The notes below the pieces were generated by a model that had not been told where the DNA came from, searched no databases, and saw nothing but the letters and a program-made list of their open reading frames with translations. From positions 1-64,000 of IMG/VR virus record IMGVR_UViG_3300033074_001883: DNA of 64,000 nucleotides. One strand, given 5' to 3'. The stretch is from a virus. Its lineage: Duplodnaviria; Caudoviricetes. Position numbers and translations under genes: made by a program. Shown here piece after piece: positions 39,784-54,355 of the stretch (position 1 is the stretch's first letter; each line of letters begins with the position of its first letter).

Positions 39784-40353
39784 TCACTCTTCGTCCGAGC
39801 CCGGCGTCGCGCGCTCCATCTCCGGGTTGCGGAGCGAAGGCGTGATGAGCGAGTTCTCTTCGAGCTGCTTCGAGAGAACCATGTCGGGGAGCGCGGTGTA
39901 CTCGACGACCGACACGGAGTCGAACGAGGGGAACGACTTCACGACGCCCGAGCGAGGAGCATGCGGCTTCTTCGCGTGGTCGCGCTCCGCGCCGCCACCG
40001 GCCGACGAGACGCCCTTCTTCTTGACGAACGAACCGGGCTGCGAGCCACGGACCGGGTTCATCTCGTTGCCGATCTTCGCGGCAACGCCCTTGCCCTTCT
40101 TCTTCATGCCCTTCTCGACATCGGTCTCGAAGAACTCGGCGAACGACTTGATCATGACTTCTCCTTCGGGTTGGTCCTGCGTGGTTGACTTGCCCATCTT
40201 CGTCATCTTGTTGAGCGACGCCGTGTTCTTCTTCTTCTGCGCAGCGGAGAGGCCGGGCGCGTGAACGACCTTGCCCATCTTCGGCTTGTTCTTCTTCTTC
40301 CACGCCATCGTCGCCATGCCCTTGCCCTTCGCGAGATACTCTCTTCCAGTCAT
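39784..40353 (-). CDS. Lys-rich hypothetical protein (putative internal head protein)
   Basis: 189 aa, very basic, with MIKS/VEKG/VVKS motifs. ATGA-coupled to the upstream gene. Confidence 0.6.
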   Translation of the reverse strand: MTGREYLAKGKGMATMAWKKKNKPKMGKVVHAPGLSAAQKKKNTASLNKMTKMGKSTTQDQPEGEVMIKSFAEFFETDVEKGMKKKGKGVAAKIGNEMNPVRGSQPGSFVKKKGVSSAGGGAERDHAKKPHAPRSGVVKSFPSFDSVSVVEYTALPDMVLSKQLEENSLITPSLRNPEMERATPGSDEE

Positions 40354-41933
40354 GAGATTGCTCCTTGCTTCTTGAGTAGCGAGTGGAATTCCTTGGCCGA
40401 CTTGGCCGCGTCGGACTGTGAGAGGTCGTAGCCCTTGGTCAGGAAGGTAGCAAGTTTCGCCAGCGTGTTCACCCCCGAGACGTGGAGTGAGTCGGCGAAC
40501 TCGCGCTCCTCGGTGCCCTTCTTGAGGGCGCGCGGGTTGAGCGTGAAGCTCTTCTTCGAGAGCGCGGCCTTGTCGCGCTTGATGCCGGTCTTCAGCTTCG
40601 TGACCTGCTCCTCGGCCTCGGTGATGTCCTCGCGGAGGTGGTCGCGGGAGACGGGCACGGTCTTCGTCTTCGCGAGCGTGACGCCGCGCTTGGCGAGGTC
40701 GGCCTTCTTCGGGTTGAGCGACTTGGTGGCCTGACGCTTGAGCACGGCGAAGACGGAGGCGAGGTACTCGTCGCTAACCTTGTGCTTCGTGATGAAGCTG
40801 GAACCGTGTTGCTTGAAGAACGTGATGAAGCCGCGCTCGTCGCGGGAGTCGGCGATCTTGTGGAGCCGGTCGACGGTGACGCCGAGGACGGCTGCGAGCC
40901 GGTGGGGCGACGGCTCCACCATCGTGTCCGGGGCCATGTCCGGGACCGCGCCCTTCGGTGACGACGCGGCGGCGGGCTTCTTGCCCGACGGCTTCCGGTA
41001 GTCGTAGGTCTTCTTGCCGTTCTTGCTCGCGCCCACCTTCGCCGTCGGTGCTGCGGTCGCTTTCTTCTGTGGTCGCTCGCGCTTCTCCGACGGCTTCGTG
41101 AGGATGGCTTTGTTGAGGTGCTCGTCGATGCGCTCAACGAGTTGGCTGGCGACATCGTCCGAGTAGGCGTCGAGGCCGTGGTGCTTGAAAGCACGCACCG
41201 CTTCGAGACGCTGACTGCGCGCGGAGTCGAGCCTTCCGGCCATGGCCGCGCCGAGCGCCTCGTCGAGCAGACCACGAGCCGCTTGCACAGAGAGCTTCGT
41301 CACCGGACCGGCCGCGCCCTTGGCTCCGACGTGAACCAGCTTCCCCGACTTCGTCTTGCGCGTGTACGCCTTGTGGTTCTTCGACTTCTTCGTCTCCTCC
41401 GACGACTCGTCCTCGACGCCGTGCATCGCGTTGAAGATGCGCTTGTCGCGGTTCGCGGGCATCGACTCCTTGCCACGTCCTGCCGAGGCGGCCGGTGAGC
41501 CTGCGCGGTCGGTGCCTACCATCGAGCCGATGGCCTTGTGCACGAGGTTCATGAAGGCGCGATTCTCGATGGCCTTCTTGTAGACCTCGTACGGACCGAA
41601 GCGCTTCGCTGCGAAGTAGCCCTTGGCGACCTCGAAGAGCTTCACGCTCGGCATCGACTTGATGGTCTCCTCTTCGTCGACCGGGCGCTCTTCGTAGTAG
41701 CGAACGACCTGATGCTTCGTCGCGCGCTCTTGGAACGCAGTGATGCGGGCCGCGTTCTCGGGGCTGTCGGTGTCGCGCGTCACTTCGTCCTTCGGGCCGT
41801 ACTTGCCCGTCCAGAAGCCCTGCCCCTGCGCCCCTGACTCCGGGTTGAGGTAGAGCTTCGCGGCGGAGATCTGCGTGTGACGGTTGCCACCGCCGCTCAC
41901 TACGCCATTCGGCTGTTCACGTTCGACGCCCAT
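40350..41933 (-). CDS. Basic hypothetical protein (putative internal head protein)
   Basis: 527 aa with many hydrophobic-x-K-[ASG] sites and a YTRKTKSGKLVHV motif. Confidence 0.65.
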   Translation of the reverse strand: MGVEREQPNGVVSGGGNRHTQISAAKLYLNPESGAQGQGFWTGKYGPKDEVTRDTDSPENAARITAFQERATKHQVVRYYEERPVDEEETIKSMPSVKLFEVAKGYFAAKRFGPYEVYKKAIENRAFMNLVHKAIGSMVGTDRAGSPAASAGRGKESMPANRDKRIFNAMHGVEDESSEETKKSKNHKAYTRKTKSGKLVHVGAKGAAGPVTKLSVQAARGLLDEALGAAMAGRLDSARSQRLEAVRAFKHHGLDAYSDDVASQLVERIDEHLNKAILTKPSEKRERPQKKATAAPTAKVGASKNGKKTYDYRKPSGKKPAAASSPKGAVPDMAPDTMVEPSPHRLAAVLGVTVDRLHKIADSRDERGFITFFKQHGSSFITKHKVSDEYLASVFAVLKRQATKSLNPKKADLAKRGVTLAKTKTVPVSRDHLREDITEAEEQVTKLKTGIKRDKAALSKKSFTLNPRALKKGTEEREFADSLHVSGVNTLAKLATFLTKGYDLSQSDAAKSAKEFHSLLKKQGAIS

Positions 41934-48182: not shown

Positions 48183-48476
48183 TTAGACGACGGAGATCCA
48201 GAGAAGATGGTAGGCGACGGTGGCCGCGCTCGACTGCACCTTGACGTCCTTCATCAGCGCCTGCACCGGGAGGTCGACGGTCGAGAGCGGGCGCACGTTG
48301 AAGAACGTCTTCCCGCCGTCGAAGCTGATCTGGAGGATGTTCGTCGCATCCGCGTTGTGGGCGATGATGCGGGCGCTCTCTTGCCCGTTGAGGGTAGGGA
48401 GCCCGGCCCCGGGAGAGACGACTGCGGTGCCGTTGATGTGCGTGACCTTACCGCCACGCGTGAGTGCCATGGACAT
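48183..48476 (-). CDS. Small beta-rich virion-type protein
   Basis: ATG 48476 behind GAGGAG; IIAHNADATNILQISFDGG..F..V.P pattern. Confidence 0.6.
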   Translation of the reverse strand: MSMALTRGGKVTHINGTAVVSPGAGLPTLNGQESARIIAHNADATNILQISFDGGKTFFNVRPLSTVDLPVQALMKDVKVQSSAATVAYHLLWISVV

Positions 48477-48478
48477 TG

Positions 48479-49177
48479 TTAATCTCCTCGCATGCCCTTC
48501 ACCGCCGACACGCAGTCGGAGATGAGGAGCTGGGTGTTGTGGTGAACCGACGTGGACTTCTCGAAGGCGGCCTTGGTGGCATCGGCTGAGGCCGACCGGG
48601 GGACGTGCCACGCGGAGTAAGCGTAGCGCGGGAAGATGAAGCCCACCGCGTTGAGGGCCATCATGAGCTGCCCGGTGGCACCGAGCGCGCCGTCACCGAC
48701 GACGAGGAGACCGGCGAGCTTGTCCTTGATGAGGGGCTTGCCAGCCGCCGCTTGGTTCACGAACGGGTTGAGCCGCTCGATGAAGCGCTGGGTGTAGTGG
48801 TTGAGGCCGCCCCATCGAACGTCGGTCGCGAGGATGAGGATGTCGGTCGCGATGAGTTGCTCGTAGAGCATCGCCATGCCGTCGTTCGGCTGGAAGATGT
48901 CGGACTCGATGTCGTTGCGGTCGCACGGGTGCATGCACACGCGCCCGCCTCCGCCGTAGCAGCCGACGCACGGGTGGATGCGCGTGCCGGTGAGCGAGTA
49001 GTTCGCGACCTCGACATGCGCGTCACGGAGAAGCTGGGTGGCCTCCTCCGCCATCCAGCTTGAGGCGTTCGGCTCGTCGGCTCGCGCCGAGGTGATGACC
49101 ATGGCCTTGACGGCTTGGTCGCTCGGCGACGGAGACGCCTTGCTCAGGAAGTCCTCGACGGAGATGGGGGACGTCAC
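48479..49177 (-). CDS. Flavodoxin-fold NAD(P)H-dependent FMN reductase / iron-sulfur flavoprotein (WrbA/Isf family)
   Basis: ITSAR...SS.MA, IHPCVGCY...VCMHPC, DGM..LYEQL...DILILAT.V.WGG...Y...FIERL, K.AGLLVVG. Confidence 0.85.
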   Translation of the reverse strand: MTSPISVEDFLSKASPSPSDQAVKAMVITSARADEPNASSWMAEEATQLLRDAHVEVANYSLTGTRIHPCVGCYGGGGRVCMHPCDRNDIESDIFQPNDGMAMLYEQLIATDILILATDVRWGGLNHYTQRFIERLNPFVNQAAAGKPLIKDKLAGLLVVGDGALGATGQLMMALNAVGFIFPRYAYSAWHVPRSASADATKAAFEKSTSVHHNTQLLISDCVSAVKGMRGD

Positions 49178-49180
49178 CGA

Positions 49181-49369
49181 CTACCGCCCCTTCCGGAGGT
49201 CGTTGTCGTCGATGGTCTTCTTCGTCAGCTCGTCGCCGCGAGTGCCGGACTCAAGGCACGTCGGGCACGTCGAGGACTTCGCAAGGTACTTCTTGCCGCA
49301 GCCGGGGCAGGTCCACTCGTAGTTCGACGAGTCACTTGCCGAGGGGCGGGGGCGGGAAGGCTGAGGCAT
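49181..49369 (-). CDS. Small zinc-ribbon protein
   Basis: From ATG 49369: WTCPGCGKKY...TCPTC. Confidence 0.55.
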   Translation of the reverse strand: MPQPSRPRPSASDSSNYEWTCPGCGKKYLAKSSTCPTCLESGTRGDELTKKTIDDNDLRKGR

Positions 49370-49586
49370 TGGTCTGCTCCTTGGGTACGGCGGTTCGAGG
49401 TGCGTCAGGCTGTGCTTCTGCCTCGTCACCCACCATCTTCGCAAGGAGCTGGCTCGTGTTGTAGAGACCCGCTGCCCGGCGCTTCGCGAGGAGCGCGCGA
49501 CGATCGGCCTCTTCACGCTTCAACCGGTCGGCCTCTTGCTGGAGGTCGGCTTGCTGGGAGGCTGCGATGAGGTCGTCGAGGTTCAT
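49332..49586 (-). CDS. Hypothetical coiled-coil protein
   Basis: 84 aa with AAGGAG SD, first gene after the tandem terminators. Confidence 0.55.
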   Translation of the reverse strand: MNLDDLIAASQQADLQQEADRLKREEADRRALLAKRRAAGLYNTSQLLAKMVGDEAEAQPDAPRTAVPKEQTNASAFPPPPLGK

Positions 49587-49607: not shown

Positions 49608-49667
49608 GAGGGGCGGTGACGCTGTGCCACCACCCCTCGGAACGAAACGCGCCTCCGAGGGGGCGCG
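49608..49667 (-). terminator. Tandem intrinsic terminators
   Basis: Minus strand: CGCGCCCC-CTC-GGAGGCGCG plus TTTCGTT, then GAGGGGTGGTG-loop-CACCGCCCCTC plus TCTTTCTTC. Confidence 0.7.
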
Positions 49668-49678
49668 GTGACGCGGTG

Positions 49679-49852
49679 TTACTTCTTCTTCTTCTTCGCG
49701 GCAGCAGCCAGCTTCTTCGCCGACTTGCTCTTGCCGCCCGGAGCCTTGCCGCCCTTCGCGGGCTTCTTCTTCTTCTTCTGGCTGCCACCACCACCGCCGC
49801 TGCCGCGTGCGAACACGGACAGCGAGGCGAACATCTCAGACGGAACTCGCAT
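49679..49852 (-). CDS. 57-aa Gly/Lys-rich basic peptide
   Basis: SD GAGGA; MRVPSEMFASLSVFARGSGGGGGSQKKKKKPAKGGKAPGGKSKSAKKLAAAAKKKKK-stop. Read manually; below the ORF-track cutoff. Confidence 0.7.
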   Translation of the reverse strand: MRVPSEMFASLSVFARGSGGGGGSQKKKKKPAKGGKAPGGKSKSAKKLAAAAKKKKK

Positions 49853-49897
49853 GATCTTGTCCTCTCGATTGGTTGGAACGTTACTGCGCTCGACAGC

Positions 49898-50983
49898 CTA
49901 CGCGGTGGCAACAAGTTTTGCAAAGTTTCGCTGAGCGAGCACGACGAGGTCGCTCTTCGGTGCCTTCGACTTCTTCGTCCGCCCCTCGACGGTGAACTCG
50001 AACCCCTTGTGAGAGGAGATCCACGGAGCCGATGCCATGAAGTAGCAGTCGCGTCCACGAGTAACCTTCTTGAGCGCGCCGATGACGCGCGGGTTCGATG
50101 CACCGTTGAACCAGAAGGTGACCGACTTCGGGAGCGTCGAGTGCCACACGAGGATGGCCCGCAGGAAGTCTGACGCTGCCGCGACGCCGTCCGACGAGAG
50201 CTTCTGCACGTGGAAGTTCAACTGCGGGACGATGGGTGCGTAGCGCTTCACGTCCGGCTTCGTGTCGAAGCGTGCGTAGTGCGCCATGAGGAAAAAGTCG
50301 CCGCCGCCCTCCTCCATTCCCTTCAGCGTGCGGCTCCAGTTGAAGTGGTGGTTCTGCACCGACTCGTCGCCGTAGATGGAGTACCCCAGCGGTTCGTACG
50401 CGTCGATGTCACGGCGTGACGCGAACTCAAGGTGCACGTCCTTGTCCGACGCACGCTCCAGCACGTCGTCGTACATCGCGGTCTGGAGGATGAGCTTCTT
50501 GCTCTTCGGGAGCCCCATGTAGTCCTTGAGGTCGTCCGAGTAGAACCCGCGAGACGCGCTCCACACGTGCCGCAGAGCGACTGCGTAGATGTCGATTTCG
50601 TCCGGGTACGCCGCGCTCGCGTTCCCGGCGAACGCGGACGACTTTCCGCCGATGAGTGTCACCACCGCCTTCGAGGGGGACGAGAGCACGCGACCCGGGC
50701 GGATGTTGTAGTCGGCCTTCGCGAACTTCTGCTGGAAGAGGTCGAGCATCGGGCTCTTGATGCACACGGCCGGGACCTCGACGTTCTCCACGCCACCGCC
50801 GCCGCACGTTCCGCAGGCACCGCCGCAGGAGCTTTGCTTGCACCGCTCGCGTCCACCGTTCGCTTCGCACCCGGCGCACTTGCCTGCCTTGAAGAGGTTG
50901 CAGTTCGAGCACCAGTCTTTGGTGCCGCAGGTGAGGGTCTTCTCGGAAGACGGCGGCTTCATCACGGGAACGCTCAGAGACAT
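49898..50983 (-). CDS. Cys-rich (DUF3795-like) N-terminus plus DUF4417-like domain protein
   Basis: Nine Cys in about 42 aa (C.....WCSNC...GKCAGC...C....C...C..C). C-terminal DDVLER...PLGYSIYGD...NHHFNWSR parallels recalled DUF4417 motifs (D..FER...PDFSLY.D...WNHYR). Confidence 0.5.
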   Translation of the reverse strand: MSLSVPVMKPPSSEKTLTCGTKDWCSNCNLFKAGKCAGCEANGGRERCKQSSCGGACGTCGGGGVENVEVPAVCIKSPMLDLFQQKFAKADYNIRPGRVLSSPSKAVVTLIGGKSSAFAGNASAAYPDEIDIYAVALRHVWSASRGFYSDDLKDYMGLPKSKKLILQTAMYDDVLERASDKDVHLEFASRRDIDAYEPLGYSIYGDESVQNHHFNWSRTLKGMEEGGGDFFLMAHYARFDTKPDVKRYAPIVPQLNFHVQKLSSDGVAAASDFLRAILVWHSTLPKSVTFWFNGASNPRVIGALKKVTRGRDCYFMASAPWISSHKGFEFTVEGRTKKSKAPKSDLVVLAQRNFAKLVATA

Positions 50984-51672
50984 TTTGCTAGCTCCTTCAC
51001 ACGAGACACGTGGAACGACGACGGCTTCGACTGCAAGAGAGGCAACACGACGGTGCGAGCCATTACGCTTCGAGCGTATGGTGTGAAGCCAGAGAACCCG
51101 ACGAAGGTGGTGATGCCCTTCGCCCAGAGGCGTTCGCGGACAACGCGAGCGCGCGGGGTGTGGATGACGACGTGCGACGTTGCGTCAACTACGAGTCCGG
51201 GAAGTCGCGAGTAGCCAGCGAGAACGTCGGACGGCAACGGGGGCTCGGACGGCACCGGAAGGCTCGGTACGACGAACCCGCCTCCTTGGAGTGACACTGC
51301 CTTGCCCGGGCCGGTGGAGAAGAGATGGTAGTGAGCGCTCACGAGGTTGCTCGCGGAGTGAGCGCAGTCCTCGACGACGACAAGACCACGAGCGGATGGT
51401 GGCGGCGGCGACCGAACGCCCCACAGATGAGTCAGCAGCGCGAGGCCCTCGGACCAATCCACCGCGCCGAGCATCCACGTCCACCCGTCGAGTTCGACGA
51501 AGGTGAGACGAGCACCGCGTCGACGGAGCGCCCTCACCACATGAGCGCAGTGGACGGCGGGGACGAAGACGCGCTTCGGCTTCAACGTGTCGACGAGGTG
51601 AAGGAGGCCAACGGTTGCGCTGGGGAAGGCGCGAACGCCAAGCGCCTCCATCGAGCGGAGGAGCGCGATCAT
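50974..51672 (-). CDS. DegT/DnrJ/EryC1/StrS-like PLP-dependent enzyme (shortened)
   Basis: PSATVGL, VFVPA..C..V, GARLTFVELD, THLWG, VVEDCAHS, FSTGPGKAV..QGGG (PLP Asp and Lys positions present). Confidence 0.75.
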   Translation of the reverse strand: MIALLRSMEALGVRAFPSATVGLLHLVDTLKPKRVFVPAVHCAHVVRALRRRGARLTFVELDGWTWMLGAVDWSEGLALLTHLWGVRSPPPPSARGLVVVEDCAHSASNLVSAHYHLFSTGPGKAVSLQGGGFVVPSLPVPSEPPLPSDVLAGYSRLPGLVVDATSHVVIHTPRARVVRERLWAKGITTFVGFSGFTPYARSVMARTVVLPLLQSKPSSFHVSRVKELAKCL

Positions 51673-52508
51673 GACGCCTTCTTCTTCTTGCTTGGCTTAG
51701 CCTCCGCTTTCTTCGAGGGCCTCGCGTCCGGGAGTGGCGTCTGCGACGAGTTCACCGCCATGAACTCCAACGCGCGCATGCGCTTCGCCTTGCCCTCCAA
51801 AGACTCAGCGAGGCGGTCGAGTTCGCGCTCAACGATGGTGGCGGCTTCGAGCGGGAGCGAGAAGTTCAGCGTGACCCACTTCTCCTCGTCCTTGTCGTCG
51901 TCGGTCGCGTCCTTGGTTGACGAGCGCGAGAGGAGGTCGGCGAGCACCGAGGTGTCGAGGTCCGACGCTGCGATGAGGTCTTCGAGTTGCGCCGCGTCCT
52001 TCGGCACGAGGAGCGCGAGGTCGGCGACCGTGAGTGACTCGTCGCCCATCAGAATCTCGGCGAGCATTCGGCCGCGCTTGTCGTTGTCGGGGCTGCCGCG
52101 AAGGTAGTTGAGCGTGTCAGTGAGGAGGCGGGCTTGAGCGTCATCGACGTTAAGCACGAACGAATCGACCGTCTTCTGGTTCAGCTTCCTGAGCACCTTC
52201 CATCGGTGGAAGCCGTCGATGATCTCGTACATCCCCGGGGAGCCCGGCGCGGGCCTCACGACGATGGGCGGGATGGCACCGGTCTTGTCGAGGAGCCGTG
52301 TGATGCCTGCCACGAGCCGAGCCTGAAGCTCGGGTGCCATCGAGTTCGGGTTCCACGTGTTGGGCTTGACCGAGTCAATGTCGAGGGCGAGCGTCTTGCC
52401 GCCTGCCTTCGGTCGAGCTTCCTCGGCGACCTTCTTCGGCTTCGCCTCTGCTACCGACTCGCCCTTCACCTTCGCCAGCTTTTCGCGCAACTGCTCCTTG
52501 AGACCCAT
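51669..52508 (-). CDS. ParB/Srx N-terminal domain protein (IbrB-like)
   Basis: IDSVKPNTWNPNSM...IPPIVVRP...YEIIDGFHRW...LN.LRG. Confidence 0.85.
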   Translation of the reverse strand: MGLKEQLREKLAKVKGESVAEAKPKKVAEEARPKAGGKTLALDIDSVKPNTWNPNSMAPELQARLVAGITRLLDKTGAIPPIVVRPAPGSPGMYEIIDGFHRWKVLRKLNQKTVDSFVLNVDDAQARLLTDTLNYLRGSPDNDKRGRMLAEILMGDESLTVADLALLVPKDAAQLEDLIAASDLDTSVLADLLSRSSTKDATDDDKDEEKWVTLNFSLPLEAATIVERELDRLAESLEGKAKRMRALEFMAVNSSQTPLPDARPSKKAEAKPSKKKKAS

Positions 52509-52537
52509 TCACGCTCCACACGACCACGAGGAAGACT

Positions 52538-52921
52538 TCAGGCTGCGTAGACCACGGTGACGACGACTGAGGTCGCGCCGGGGTTCTGAATCGACAACGA
52601 CGTGAGGCCGCTCCCGTAGACGAGGTACCGCGCCGGGTACGACGGAGGGTTGGTCCCGATGCCGGTGCGCGGCGCGATGTCGAAGAAGCCGAGGCCGTTG
52701 AGGTTCAGCCGCACCGCCGAGGCGCACTGCACGTAGAGGAACTTGGCGGCGATGCCACCGAGGCTCACCGTGGCACCCGCACCGACTGAGACTGCCTGTG
52801 TCGTCGCGTTGCCGAAGTCGTCGGTCACCTCGTCGTCGCGTTGCGTCCGCTCGAAGTGCTGCGTCGTCTCGGTGGAGTCGCTGCTCAGGAGAAGCGTCAA
52901 CTTCGAACGGAGTCGGGACAT
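52538..52921 (-). CDS. Hypothetical beta-rich protein
   Basis: 127 aa, first gene of the ParB operon. Confidence 0.6.
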   Translation of the reverse strand: MSRLRSKLTLLLSSDSTETTQHFERTQRDDEVTDDFGNATTQAVSVGAGATVSLGGIAAKFLYVQCASAVRLNLNGLGFFDIAPRTGIGTNPPSYPARYLVYGSGLTSLSIQNPGATSVVVTVVYAA

Positions 52922-54001: not shown

Positions 54002-54355
54002 ATGAAGGTCCTCTGCATAGACGACGACCCGTCTGTCGCTGAACTCGTAGCCGAGATCGTCACCTACTGCGGGCACACGGCCGTGGTGCTGACTGACCCG
54101 ATGGCGTTGGTGGTGCACCTCCGAGACCCTGACCTCGGCGCGGTGCTGACCGACTACATGATGCCGAAGCTCGATGGCATCGAGGTGCTCACCATCGTCC
54201 AAGAGACAAGCGCGCCCCGGGTGCGCCGGGTGCTCATCACGGCGGCCCCGCAAGAGGCTGCGGTGAAGGCGGCCTCGGTGAGCGGAGTGGTGCAACTCGT
54301 CATCTCGAAGCCGCCGCGCATCCTCGACGTGAAGCTCGCGCTCGCGTGGATGTGA
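54002..54355 (+). CDS. Stand-alone response regulator receiver (CheY-like)
   Basis: KVLCIDDD, VLTDYMMPKLDG (phospho-Asp), VLITA, ISKP. Confidence 0.92.
   Translation: MKVLCIDDDPSVAELVAEIVTYCGHTAVVLTDPMALVVHLRDPDLGAVLTDYMMPKLDGIEVLTIVQETSAPRVRRVLITAAPQEAAVKAASVSGVVQLVISKPPRILDVKLALAWM

Follow-up and report, generated by a model that had tools for sequence, protein, structure and literature searches.

The DNA analysed here (the window) is the first 64 kb of the 80,045-bp linear IMG/VR virus record IMGVR_UViG_3300033074_001883 (∼ 64% G+C; CheckV completeness 62%). Between the terminase and portal genes of this phage lies a cassette of five co-oriented minus-strand open reading frames (ORFs; 52921-49679), which is a divergent member of a widespread, uncharacterised phage module that pairs a ParB-like protein with a DUF4417 protein. 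The module combines a protein modelled with the fold of tRNA-guanine transglycosylase (TGT), a ParB protein, and a partner carrying a Gly-rich leader; a pyridoxal phosphate (PLP) protein is an optional accessory. ParB-DUF4417 fusions are frequent in phages and the pairing is already in print as a domain fusion, with no function given (bioRxiv 10.1101/2025.10.10.680097). New variants of the module are the insertion of the PLP protein, which we call mini-DegT, and a Cys-rich, peptide-linked branch of DUF4417.

Fold and family of the 361-aa protein

The 361-aa product of the fourth gene gave no direct match in Pfam, PHROG, NCBIfam or PADLOC, or in a phmmer search of the PDB. Three close homologues were returned by a word-indexed search and 57 by an exhaustive profile search of 1.84e9 representatives, 24 of them with E below 1e-30. 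AlphaFold2 (AF2) supplied with four sequences gave a predicted local distance difference test score (pLDDT) of 36; a confident model (pLDDT 90.3) needed an alignment of 41 sequences. In this model an N-terminal Cys-rich region is followed by a (β/α)8 barrel from about residue 97. The Cys cluster (C25xxC28, C36xxC39, C48, C53xxxC57xxC60, C74) precedes strand 1 of the barrel. Conserved barrel residues among the 41 sequences are D151, D172, E176, S202, Y204, R218, G294, P320 and G327. D172, near the end of strand 3, is the only fully invariant column of the family, and F315, W321 and K326 recur in its consensus. The Protein Atlas's own model is poor, and its feature matches are at noise level.

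The first-pass annotation of this DNA had left the fold to a Foldseek comparison, naming TGT and radical-SAM proteins among the options. Foldseek (E ∼ 1e-5) points to the former: the top matches in both the PDB and BFVD were TGTs and phage queuine tRNA-ribosyltransferases, and among viral models there was a weak match (E 0.015) to a ParB/Srx-annotated protein. VIA-align gave Z scores of 16.9 for ArcTGT, 15.5 for QTRT2, 15.2 for TGT and 14.5 for DpdA (246-253 residues aligned, rmsd 3.2-3.9), 12.9 for Cap10, and at most 12 for other TIM barrels. Structurally, the barrel is therefore closest to the enzymes of the TGT/DpdA superfamily (PF01702), and on the basis of the model we describe the protein as having a TGT fold without being a TGT or DpdA. 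Canonical DpdA/TGT family membership was rejected, since profiles give no match, the Zn site is absent and the nucleophile is apparently lacking. A radical-SAM reading of the CX3CX2C motif is not supported: the spacing exists in C53x3C57x2C60 but lies ∼ 45 residues before strand 1, outside the barrel, and no radical-SAM structure was present among the 50 best fold matches, a list from which a related family may be missing.

Profile comparisons confirm the 361-aa protein as a distant branch of the DUF4417 superfamily. The window protein itself has no match to PF14386 at E ≤ 0.1 and is not a member by the Pfam model. One of the 41 family members, P0063, does match PF14386 (E 1e-15), and P0063 was found by the 361-aa family profile at E 6e-4 in 1.84e9 proteins. 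When 30 core members were compared with six phage DUF4417 proteins by hhalign (E 2e-4, probability 47%, 90 columns), the motifs DDxLERAW...FSxY...R were paired with DDYxFExxW...FSLY...YRSR. The DUF4417-like label given to the protein at first pass thus holds at the profile level, with no direct match in Pfam, PHROG or NCBIfam behind it. A tblastn search with P0063 located DUF4417 in 333 phage records; most of these belong to mycobacteriophages of the L5/D29 type, to Gordonia phages and to streptococcal phages. These phages carry the gene immediately ahead of the terminase genes or at the cos-proximal end of the genome, under the annotations 'nuclease', 'methylase' or hypothetical. The P0063 gene (L013 8272-9617) is a neighbour of RecA, and Amidoligase_2 genes are found at a distance of 2 kb.

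The window protein resembles the ParB-DUF4417 phage proteins (PF14386; phiBHN167 gp20 and Che12/D29-type gp1) in two barrel motifs, DDxxExxW behind strand 3 and, at strand 4, FSxY with a subsequent R. Both are phage-borne, have a ParB_N domain fused or adjacent, and are followed by a gene with a Gly/Arg-rich leader. In contrast to classical DUF4417 proteins, the window protein has an additional N-terminal domain with 8-10 Cys and a longer barrel (361 aa versus ∼ 220-280); the N-terminal Cys cluster marks the window subfamily and is missing from the classical phage proteins. The cassette also differs in that ParB is encoded by a separate gene, a Lys-rich peptide of 57 aa, whose leader is internal, serves as the partner, and the mini-DegT gene is inserted. 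Finally, classical DUF4417 genes sit just before the small terminase gene, whereas the window cassette is located between terminase and portal.

Partners of the TGT-fold protein

The ParB-like label of the first-pass annotation is borne out by a match of the 279-aa protein to ParB_N (PF02195; E 3e-7, 30.7 bits against a cut-off of 26.3). Its N- and C-terminal tails are Lys-rich. ParB-like PHROG families were matched down to 6e-16, the ParB part of a methyltransferase PHROG at 1.3e-9, and in PADLOC the ParB part of MTase_II. In the PDB matches, the DGFHRW/GFHRW sequence aligns to the GERRW P-motif of Caulobacter ParB and Noc with the Arg kept, which indicates that the nucleotide-binding arginine is present. 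Judged by its PNTWNPN and DGFHRW motifs, the protein is of the ParB type that accompanies DNA-modifying enzymes; in phages, ParBc proteins are known as companions of such enzymes (PMC12783734). The ParB gene adjoins the 361-aa-type gene in all eight informative neighbourhoods (window, L001, L002, L005, L006, L008, L009, L011). The adjacent ParB is of the same PNxWNPN type, lies either upstream or downstream, and is found with 361-aa homologues of down to 28% identity. In gp20 of Streptococcus phage phiBHN167 and in gut phage MT835524, ParB and DUF4417 form a single polypeptide.

The 57-aa peptide is a probable partner or substrate of the TGT-fold protein. It consists of a 15-residue N-terminal part, the sequence RGSGGGGGS and a Lys-rich tail, and its ORF has a GAGAGGA Shine-Dalgarno sequence 8 nt before the ATG. 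A Lys-rich ORF of 40-85 aa accompanies the enzyme gene in seven contexts, which include L001, L002, L005, L006, L007/L008 and L009. The leaders of the subfamily read FARGSGGGGGS in the window, FKRGGKGG in L005 and MSGGSG in L002. Outside the subfamily, the gene after DUF4417 recurrently has a Gly/Arg-rich leader (a recurrent feature, not a curated definition). In Gordonia phage Remus it encodes an ADP-ribosyltransferase starting MGGRGSGGGG, which has the string RGSGGGG in common with the window peptide; in the D29-like phage Lakes MGGRGSAGSGG is encoded upstream of the annotated start; MT835524 and Dulem virus 39 have MGGRGSTSSS and MGGRSG, respectively; and Che12 gp2, annotated 'peptidase', has a Gly/Ser run. 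The first-pass annotation had stated that DUF4417 genes occur with ParB-like genes and small Gly/Arg-rich basic ORFs near packaging genes, and known phages bear this out. Of 194 coding-like ORFs of the 80-kb genome, just one, the 57-aa peptide, contains RGSG, GGRG or RGGKG within its 40 N-terminal residues; because these motifs were defined post hoc, this background is indicative only.

Two further observations concern Gly-rich N-termini. In Lakes (L025, MW924646.1; ∼ 1100-1318), gp2 probably begins upstream of its annotated start (1318): the reading frame continues open in that direction and encodes MGGRGSAGSGG, in agreement with the leaders of Remus gp2 and MT835524, and then a long Gly-rich stretch overlapping the end of gp1 (DUF4417). 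In the window, a 527-aa head-region protein (40350-41933, minus strand) has a Gly run near its N-terminus (VVSGGGNRH) and is one of four ORFs of the genome with at least four Gly in an eight-residue stretch of the first 30 residues.

For the 232-aa protein, there was no direct match in Pfam, PHROG, NCBIfam or PADLOC, or by phmmer in the PDB. A profile of its six known relatives matched BtrR in the PDB (5w71, 2c7t; E 1.2e-3) and 7b0m (E 4e-3). Against 5.8e9 proteins, the sole match outside the family was a perosamine synthetase with PF01041 (E 2.4e-3). K124 aligns to the Schiff-base Lys (SxxxGK motif of BtrR) and D102 to the Asp of EDCAQ; across six homologues of 32-79% identity, D102, H105 and K124 do not vary. 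These data suggest, weakly and in two databases, a truncated fold-type-I PLP domain related to DegT/DnrJ/EryC1 sugar aminotransferases. What is shared with BtrR and perosamine synthetase is the homologous PLP core with the Asp of EDCAH/Q and the Schiff-base Lys, after which comes a GGG turn. What differs is the length (232 aa versus ∼ 370-420), and there is neither a PF01041 match nor the full two-domain architecture. Because the N-terminal segment and the usual C-terminal domain are missing, we call the protein DegT-like and not a regular DegT; its ORF cannot be extended upstream. The DegT label of the first-pass annotation is therefore weakly supported, by the retained Asp and Lys and by profile matches, with no direct family match.

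Mini-DegT is extremely rare, with five to six relatives known, all of them beside ParB and a TGT-fold gene. Its place is between these two in the window, in the P0007 contigs and, as an uncalled ORF, in L002, and downstream of the TGT-fold gene in L005. Since mini-DegT is absent from L001 and L006, which retain the flavoprotein described below along with the basic peptide, ParB and the TGT-fold gene, it is an accessory and not a core component. The cassette had been described at first pass as a self-contained five-gene operon. The neighbourhoods do support the constant ParB pairing and the recurrent basic peptide, but mini-DegT is absent or differently placed in some relatives, the 127-aa gene is lineage-specific, and the five genes do not form a fixed unit.

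Layout and surroundings of the cassette

The coordinates are collected in Table 1. ORF positions and hairpin folding agree with the earlier description of five co-oriented genes with 4- and 10-nt overlaps and tandem terminators. ParB overlaps the 232-aa ORF by 4 nt, the latter overlaps the 361-aa ORF by 10 nt, and the remaining gaps are 29 and 45 nt. Folded jointly, the two closing hairpins reach -42.3 kcal/mol (z = -5.5 versus shuffles) and are followed by a U-rich tail. They are individually strong despite a chance-level count of terminator-like sites in the region (4 found, 4.5 expected).

Table 1. Positions of the cassette genes, their domains and associated features in the record.
Feature	Position	Strand	Basis or remark
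GpA-type large terminase	64219-65934		
127-aa protein, function unassigned	52538-52921	-	First gene of the co-oriented run
ParB_N protein, 279 aa	51669-52508	-	Pfam PF02195
Mini-DegT, 232 aa	50974-51672	-	Profile-level relation to DegT/DnrJ/EryC1
Cys-rich, predicted TGT-fold protein, 361 aa	49898-50983	-	AF2 model and fold matches; distant DUF4417 by profile
Cys-rich putative metal-binding region, residues 19-74	50762-50929	-	Cys columns conserved in family alignment
Predicted TIM-barrel domain, residues 97-361	49901-50695	-	AF2 model, structural-match ranges
Lys-rich peptide, 57 aa	49679-49852	-	Shine-Dalgarno and ATG; same-place ORFs in relatives
Two terminator-like GC-rich hairpins	49667-49648 and 49638-49608	-	End of transcription unit
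Iron-sulfur flavoprotein-like gene (FMN_red + CxxCx7Cx3C)	48479-49177	-	Pfam FMN_red, E 1e-6

Scans of Pfam, PHROG, NCBIfam and PADLOC gave no family match for the 127-aa protein. L001 and L002 encode homologues of 133 and 135 aa, respectively, immediately upstream of ParB, and an HNH gene takes this place in L005; the 127-aa gene is lineage-specific and not a universal part of the module. A paralogous relation to a second β-rich protein, of 142 aa (48183-48611), was rejected: the two were compared and are unrelated. Neither blastn nor tblastn against the phage collection found a close relative of the cassette, and a search of viral contigs found no related loci.

The flavoprotein gene lies downstream of the terminators, keeps this position in L001, L002 and L006, and is not found in more distant neighbourhoods. 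Its product may be a redox partner or reductant for the Cys-rich protein, or unrelated. We did not adopt it as a core member, because it follows the terminators and is kept only in a close phage group. Two small conserved genes occupy 49181-49586 (minus strand) between cassette and flavoprotein. One encodes an 84-aa coiled-coil protein with the C-terminal end FPPPPLGK and the other a CxxC...CxxC zinc-ribbon protein with the terminal motif TKKTIDDNDLRKG; both recur in L001, L002, L006 and L007.

Nearly all genes of the 80-kb record are on the minus strand. It encodes a portal with 46% identity to SPO1-type portals, a SNF2 helicase, RecA, a 5'-3' exonuclease, SbcCD-like proteins and thymidylate kinase; the capsid match is SU10-like and weak (E 4.6e-4, under the Pfam cut-off). 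The Pfam overview of the record also lists a PI3/PI4-kinase-like domain and an RyR domain, which together with the thymidylate kinase are unusual in a 64% G+C phage whose portal is SPO1-like. On the opposite strand, 54002-54355 (+) encodes a stand-alone CheY-like receiver domain (Response_reg, E 1e-13) that is kept in L002. Two genes past the portal, L001 (19462-21071) and L002 (16109-17265) encode a eukaryotic-type topoisomerase IB (Topoisom_I_N, Topoisom_I). No Topoisom_I match appeared in the Pfam scans of window ORFs, which covered part of the ORFs and listed 25 of 38 families.

Proposed mechanism, alternatives and significance

In the Dpd system, TGT-fold DpdA needs ATP hydrolysis by the ParB-fold protein DpdB to insert preQ0 into DNA (PMC10164549). 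The window cassette likewise pairs a predicted TGT-fold TIM barrel (Z 14.5 to PDB 7ui4) with a ParB-fold NTPase, and the Arg of the DpdB motif DGQQR is kept in DGFHR of the window ParB. It differs from DpdA/DpdB in having no sequence similarity and no TGT-type Zn site; the nucleophile and the base-recognition Asp are apparently missing, and neither preQ0 genes nor DpdC were found in the 80-kb record. In addition, Dpd is a bacterial restriction-modification island, whereas the cassette is a phage late-region module.

A second comparison is offered by the type IV cyclic oligonucleotide-based antiphage signalling system (CBASS), in which TGT-fold Cap10 holds the M(G/S)G(G/S)GG N-terminus of its partner CdnD, bearing a deazaguanine 'poised for transfer' (bioRxiv 10.1101/2025.04.06.647259). 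By analogy, Cap10-CdnD (with Cap9; PDB 9ntn) is the closest known parallel for such an enzyme-leader pair. Both have a TGT fold (Z 12.9), no TGT Zn site and a partner with a Gly-rich leader, which reads MGGRGS or RGSGG in the phage module. Unlike the window protein, Cap10 keeps a catalytic Asp/His pair; the window leader does not form the very N-terminus of the peptide, the window module has a ParB partner and Cap10-CdnD has none, and CBASS is a defence system whereas the module is phage-borne. The cassette itself is not a type IV CBASS, as there is no match to QueC (Cap9) and no nucleotidyltransferase among the genome-wide Pfam families listed.

We tentatively favour a ParB-guided, Dpd-like transferase that is directed at DNA and uses or attaches the leader peptide. 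By analogy with DpdB and DpdA, the ParB protein would load on phage DNA using nucleotide and bring the TGT-fold enzyme, which would perform glycosidic-bond (base-sugar) chemistry on the DNA and install a new group; the invariant D172 could be the general acid. The Lys-rich leader peptide would be the likely co-substrate, either as the attached group or as a carrier, as is the Gly-rich N-terminus of CdnD for Cap10. Mini-DegT would provide an optional tailoring step, an amine/carbonyl interconversion on the donor or on an opened sugar. As a result, the phage DNA would be marked or would bear a basic peptide, late and near packaging. The first-pass annotation had proposed an amino-sugar or amine modification of phage DNA or of the Lys-rich peptide. 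Nothing points to an amino sugar in particular, and the peptide as alternative target has gained weight from the conserved Gly-rich leader.

Several observations weigh against a transferase of this kind. There is no sequence-level TGT/DpdA match: PF01702 found nothing in the genome at E ≤ 1, and the family profile retrieved no TGT from the PDB. A non-significant hhalign comparison with a TGT alignment (E 0.077, probability 0.7%) lines up FWFxG / RDxYFxSxxPWxxAxKG with the TGT strands YLMGVG / GxDMFDCVxPxRxARNG. In this alignment, the TGT nucleophile Asp (E. coli D264) falls on the variable column Met316 and the base-recognition Asp seems to be replaced, strand 4 ending in S202/Y204. The TGT-type CxCxxC...H Zn site is absent, and the C-terminal half of the protein has no conserved Cys or His. 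QueC, FolE and amidoligase were not found in the 80-kb record, which is 62% complete, and a host could supply preQ0. The best fold matches include QTRT2, a TGT paralogue that is not catalytic. Lastly, the leader of the window subfamily is internal, 15 residues in, and a Cap10-like mechanism acting on an N-terminal amine is therefore not directly transferable.

The Dpd parallel also allows a pure base modification, in which ParB and the TGT-fold enzyme would exchange or derivatise a DNA base with a small-molecule donor and so evade restriction. The donor would possibly be made or tailored by mini-DegT, and the peptide would be a DNA-binding helper or an unrelated neighbour. The fold matches, with phage DpdA-type proteins at the top of BFVD, the DpdB/DpdA precedent and the conserved Arg of the ParB P-motif all agree with this explanation, as do the genes of nucleotide metabolism that lie close to distant homologues, namely those for thymidylate kinase in L009 and in L010 and a dCTP-deaminase-like gene in L012. 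We nevertheless consider it rather unlikely, since the 80-kb record contains no recognisable pathway for donor synthesis, the catalytic Asp triad seems not to be conserved, and the leader-bearing gene after DUF4417 in unrelated phages would be left unexplained. That gene is the starting point of a different proposal, namely that the target of the TGT-fold protein is the RGSGG-leader peptide or cargo, which it would modify, process or chaperone, for example for head packaging. DNA would then be chemically unaltered and ParB only a regulator or scaffold, and the cargo elsewhere would be toxins, peptidases and basic peptides. The leader is indeed kept while the downstream cargo is swappable (ADP-ribosyltransferase in Remus, 'peptidase' in Che12, unknown proteins elsewhere), Cap10 provides an example of a TGT-fold enzyme remodelled to bind a protein N-terminus, and the canonical nucleophile is apparently missing. 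The tight and repeated fusion or adjacency of ParB argues instead for a role on DNA, and a Cap9-like ligase was not found in the 80-kb record; a protein-directed enzyme is in our view unlikely.

Two other explanations are very unlikely. One is a nuclease or packaging accessory, in which DUF4417 and a ParB-like 'nuclease' domain would cleave DNA ends or make them ready for terminase, or would break down the DNA of the host. It draws on the location of the module in known phages, where it adjoins terminase genes or occupies the cos-proximal end of the genome, on HNH genes nearby and on the annotation of DUF4417 as 'nuclease' in cluster A mycobacteriophages, a label for which we found no evidence. 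TIM-barrel DNA nucleases do exist (Endo IV). Barrels of the Endo IV type are, however, not among the top fold matches, the family has no conserved metal-binding His/Asp/Glu cluster typical of such nucleases, and in the window phage the cassette is ∼ 12 kb from the terminase gene. Equally improbable is a non-catalytic adaptor, or no functional unit at all, with the barrel a degenerate, ligand-binding TGT relative similar to QTRT2 and mini-DegT a decaying fragment. The QTRT2 match (Z 15.5), the apparently missing nucleophile and the truncated, dispensable mini-DegT are in line with this. Strong conservation of polar residues at strand ends in 41 sequences (D151, D172, E176, S202, Y204, R218) is not, nor are the retention of D102, H105 and K124 in mini-DegT over 32-79% identity and in two gene orders, and the tight translational coupling.

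A bolder form of the favoured DNA-directed transferase, for which we see only a slim chance, is that ParB-DUF4417 modules are machines covalently joining leader-tagged proteins or peptides to DNA via transglycosylase-type chemistry. The tagged partner would be the protamine-like Lys-rich peptide here and a toxin or peptidase elsewhere. If true, the module would combine features of Dpd and of CBASS deazaguanylation in a phage counterpart to both, its cargo would travel along with the genome into the capsid and on to the next host, and in the window lineage the unique mini PLP enzyme would prepare a reactive amine or carbonyl.

In phages, the ParB fold has DUF4417 as one of its most frequent partners, the L5/D29 group of mycobacteriophages being among the carriers, and the fold, activity and role of DUF4417 are unassigned in the literature searched. 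The publications found to mention DUF4417 or PF14386 contained neither a TGT fold nor a leader-bearing partner for the family. The window cassette is a compact natural variant of the module, with a cargo of only a 57-aa basic peptide and a rare PLP enzyme in addition, and would be convenient for reconstitution and mass spectrometry. The links of the fold to transglycosylases, of ParB to DpdB and of the leader to the Gly-rich tail recognised by Cap10 together provide a testable hypothesis, that the module may install a new DNA mark or load protein on phage DNA.

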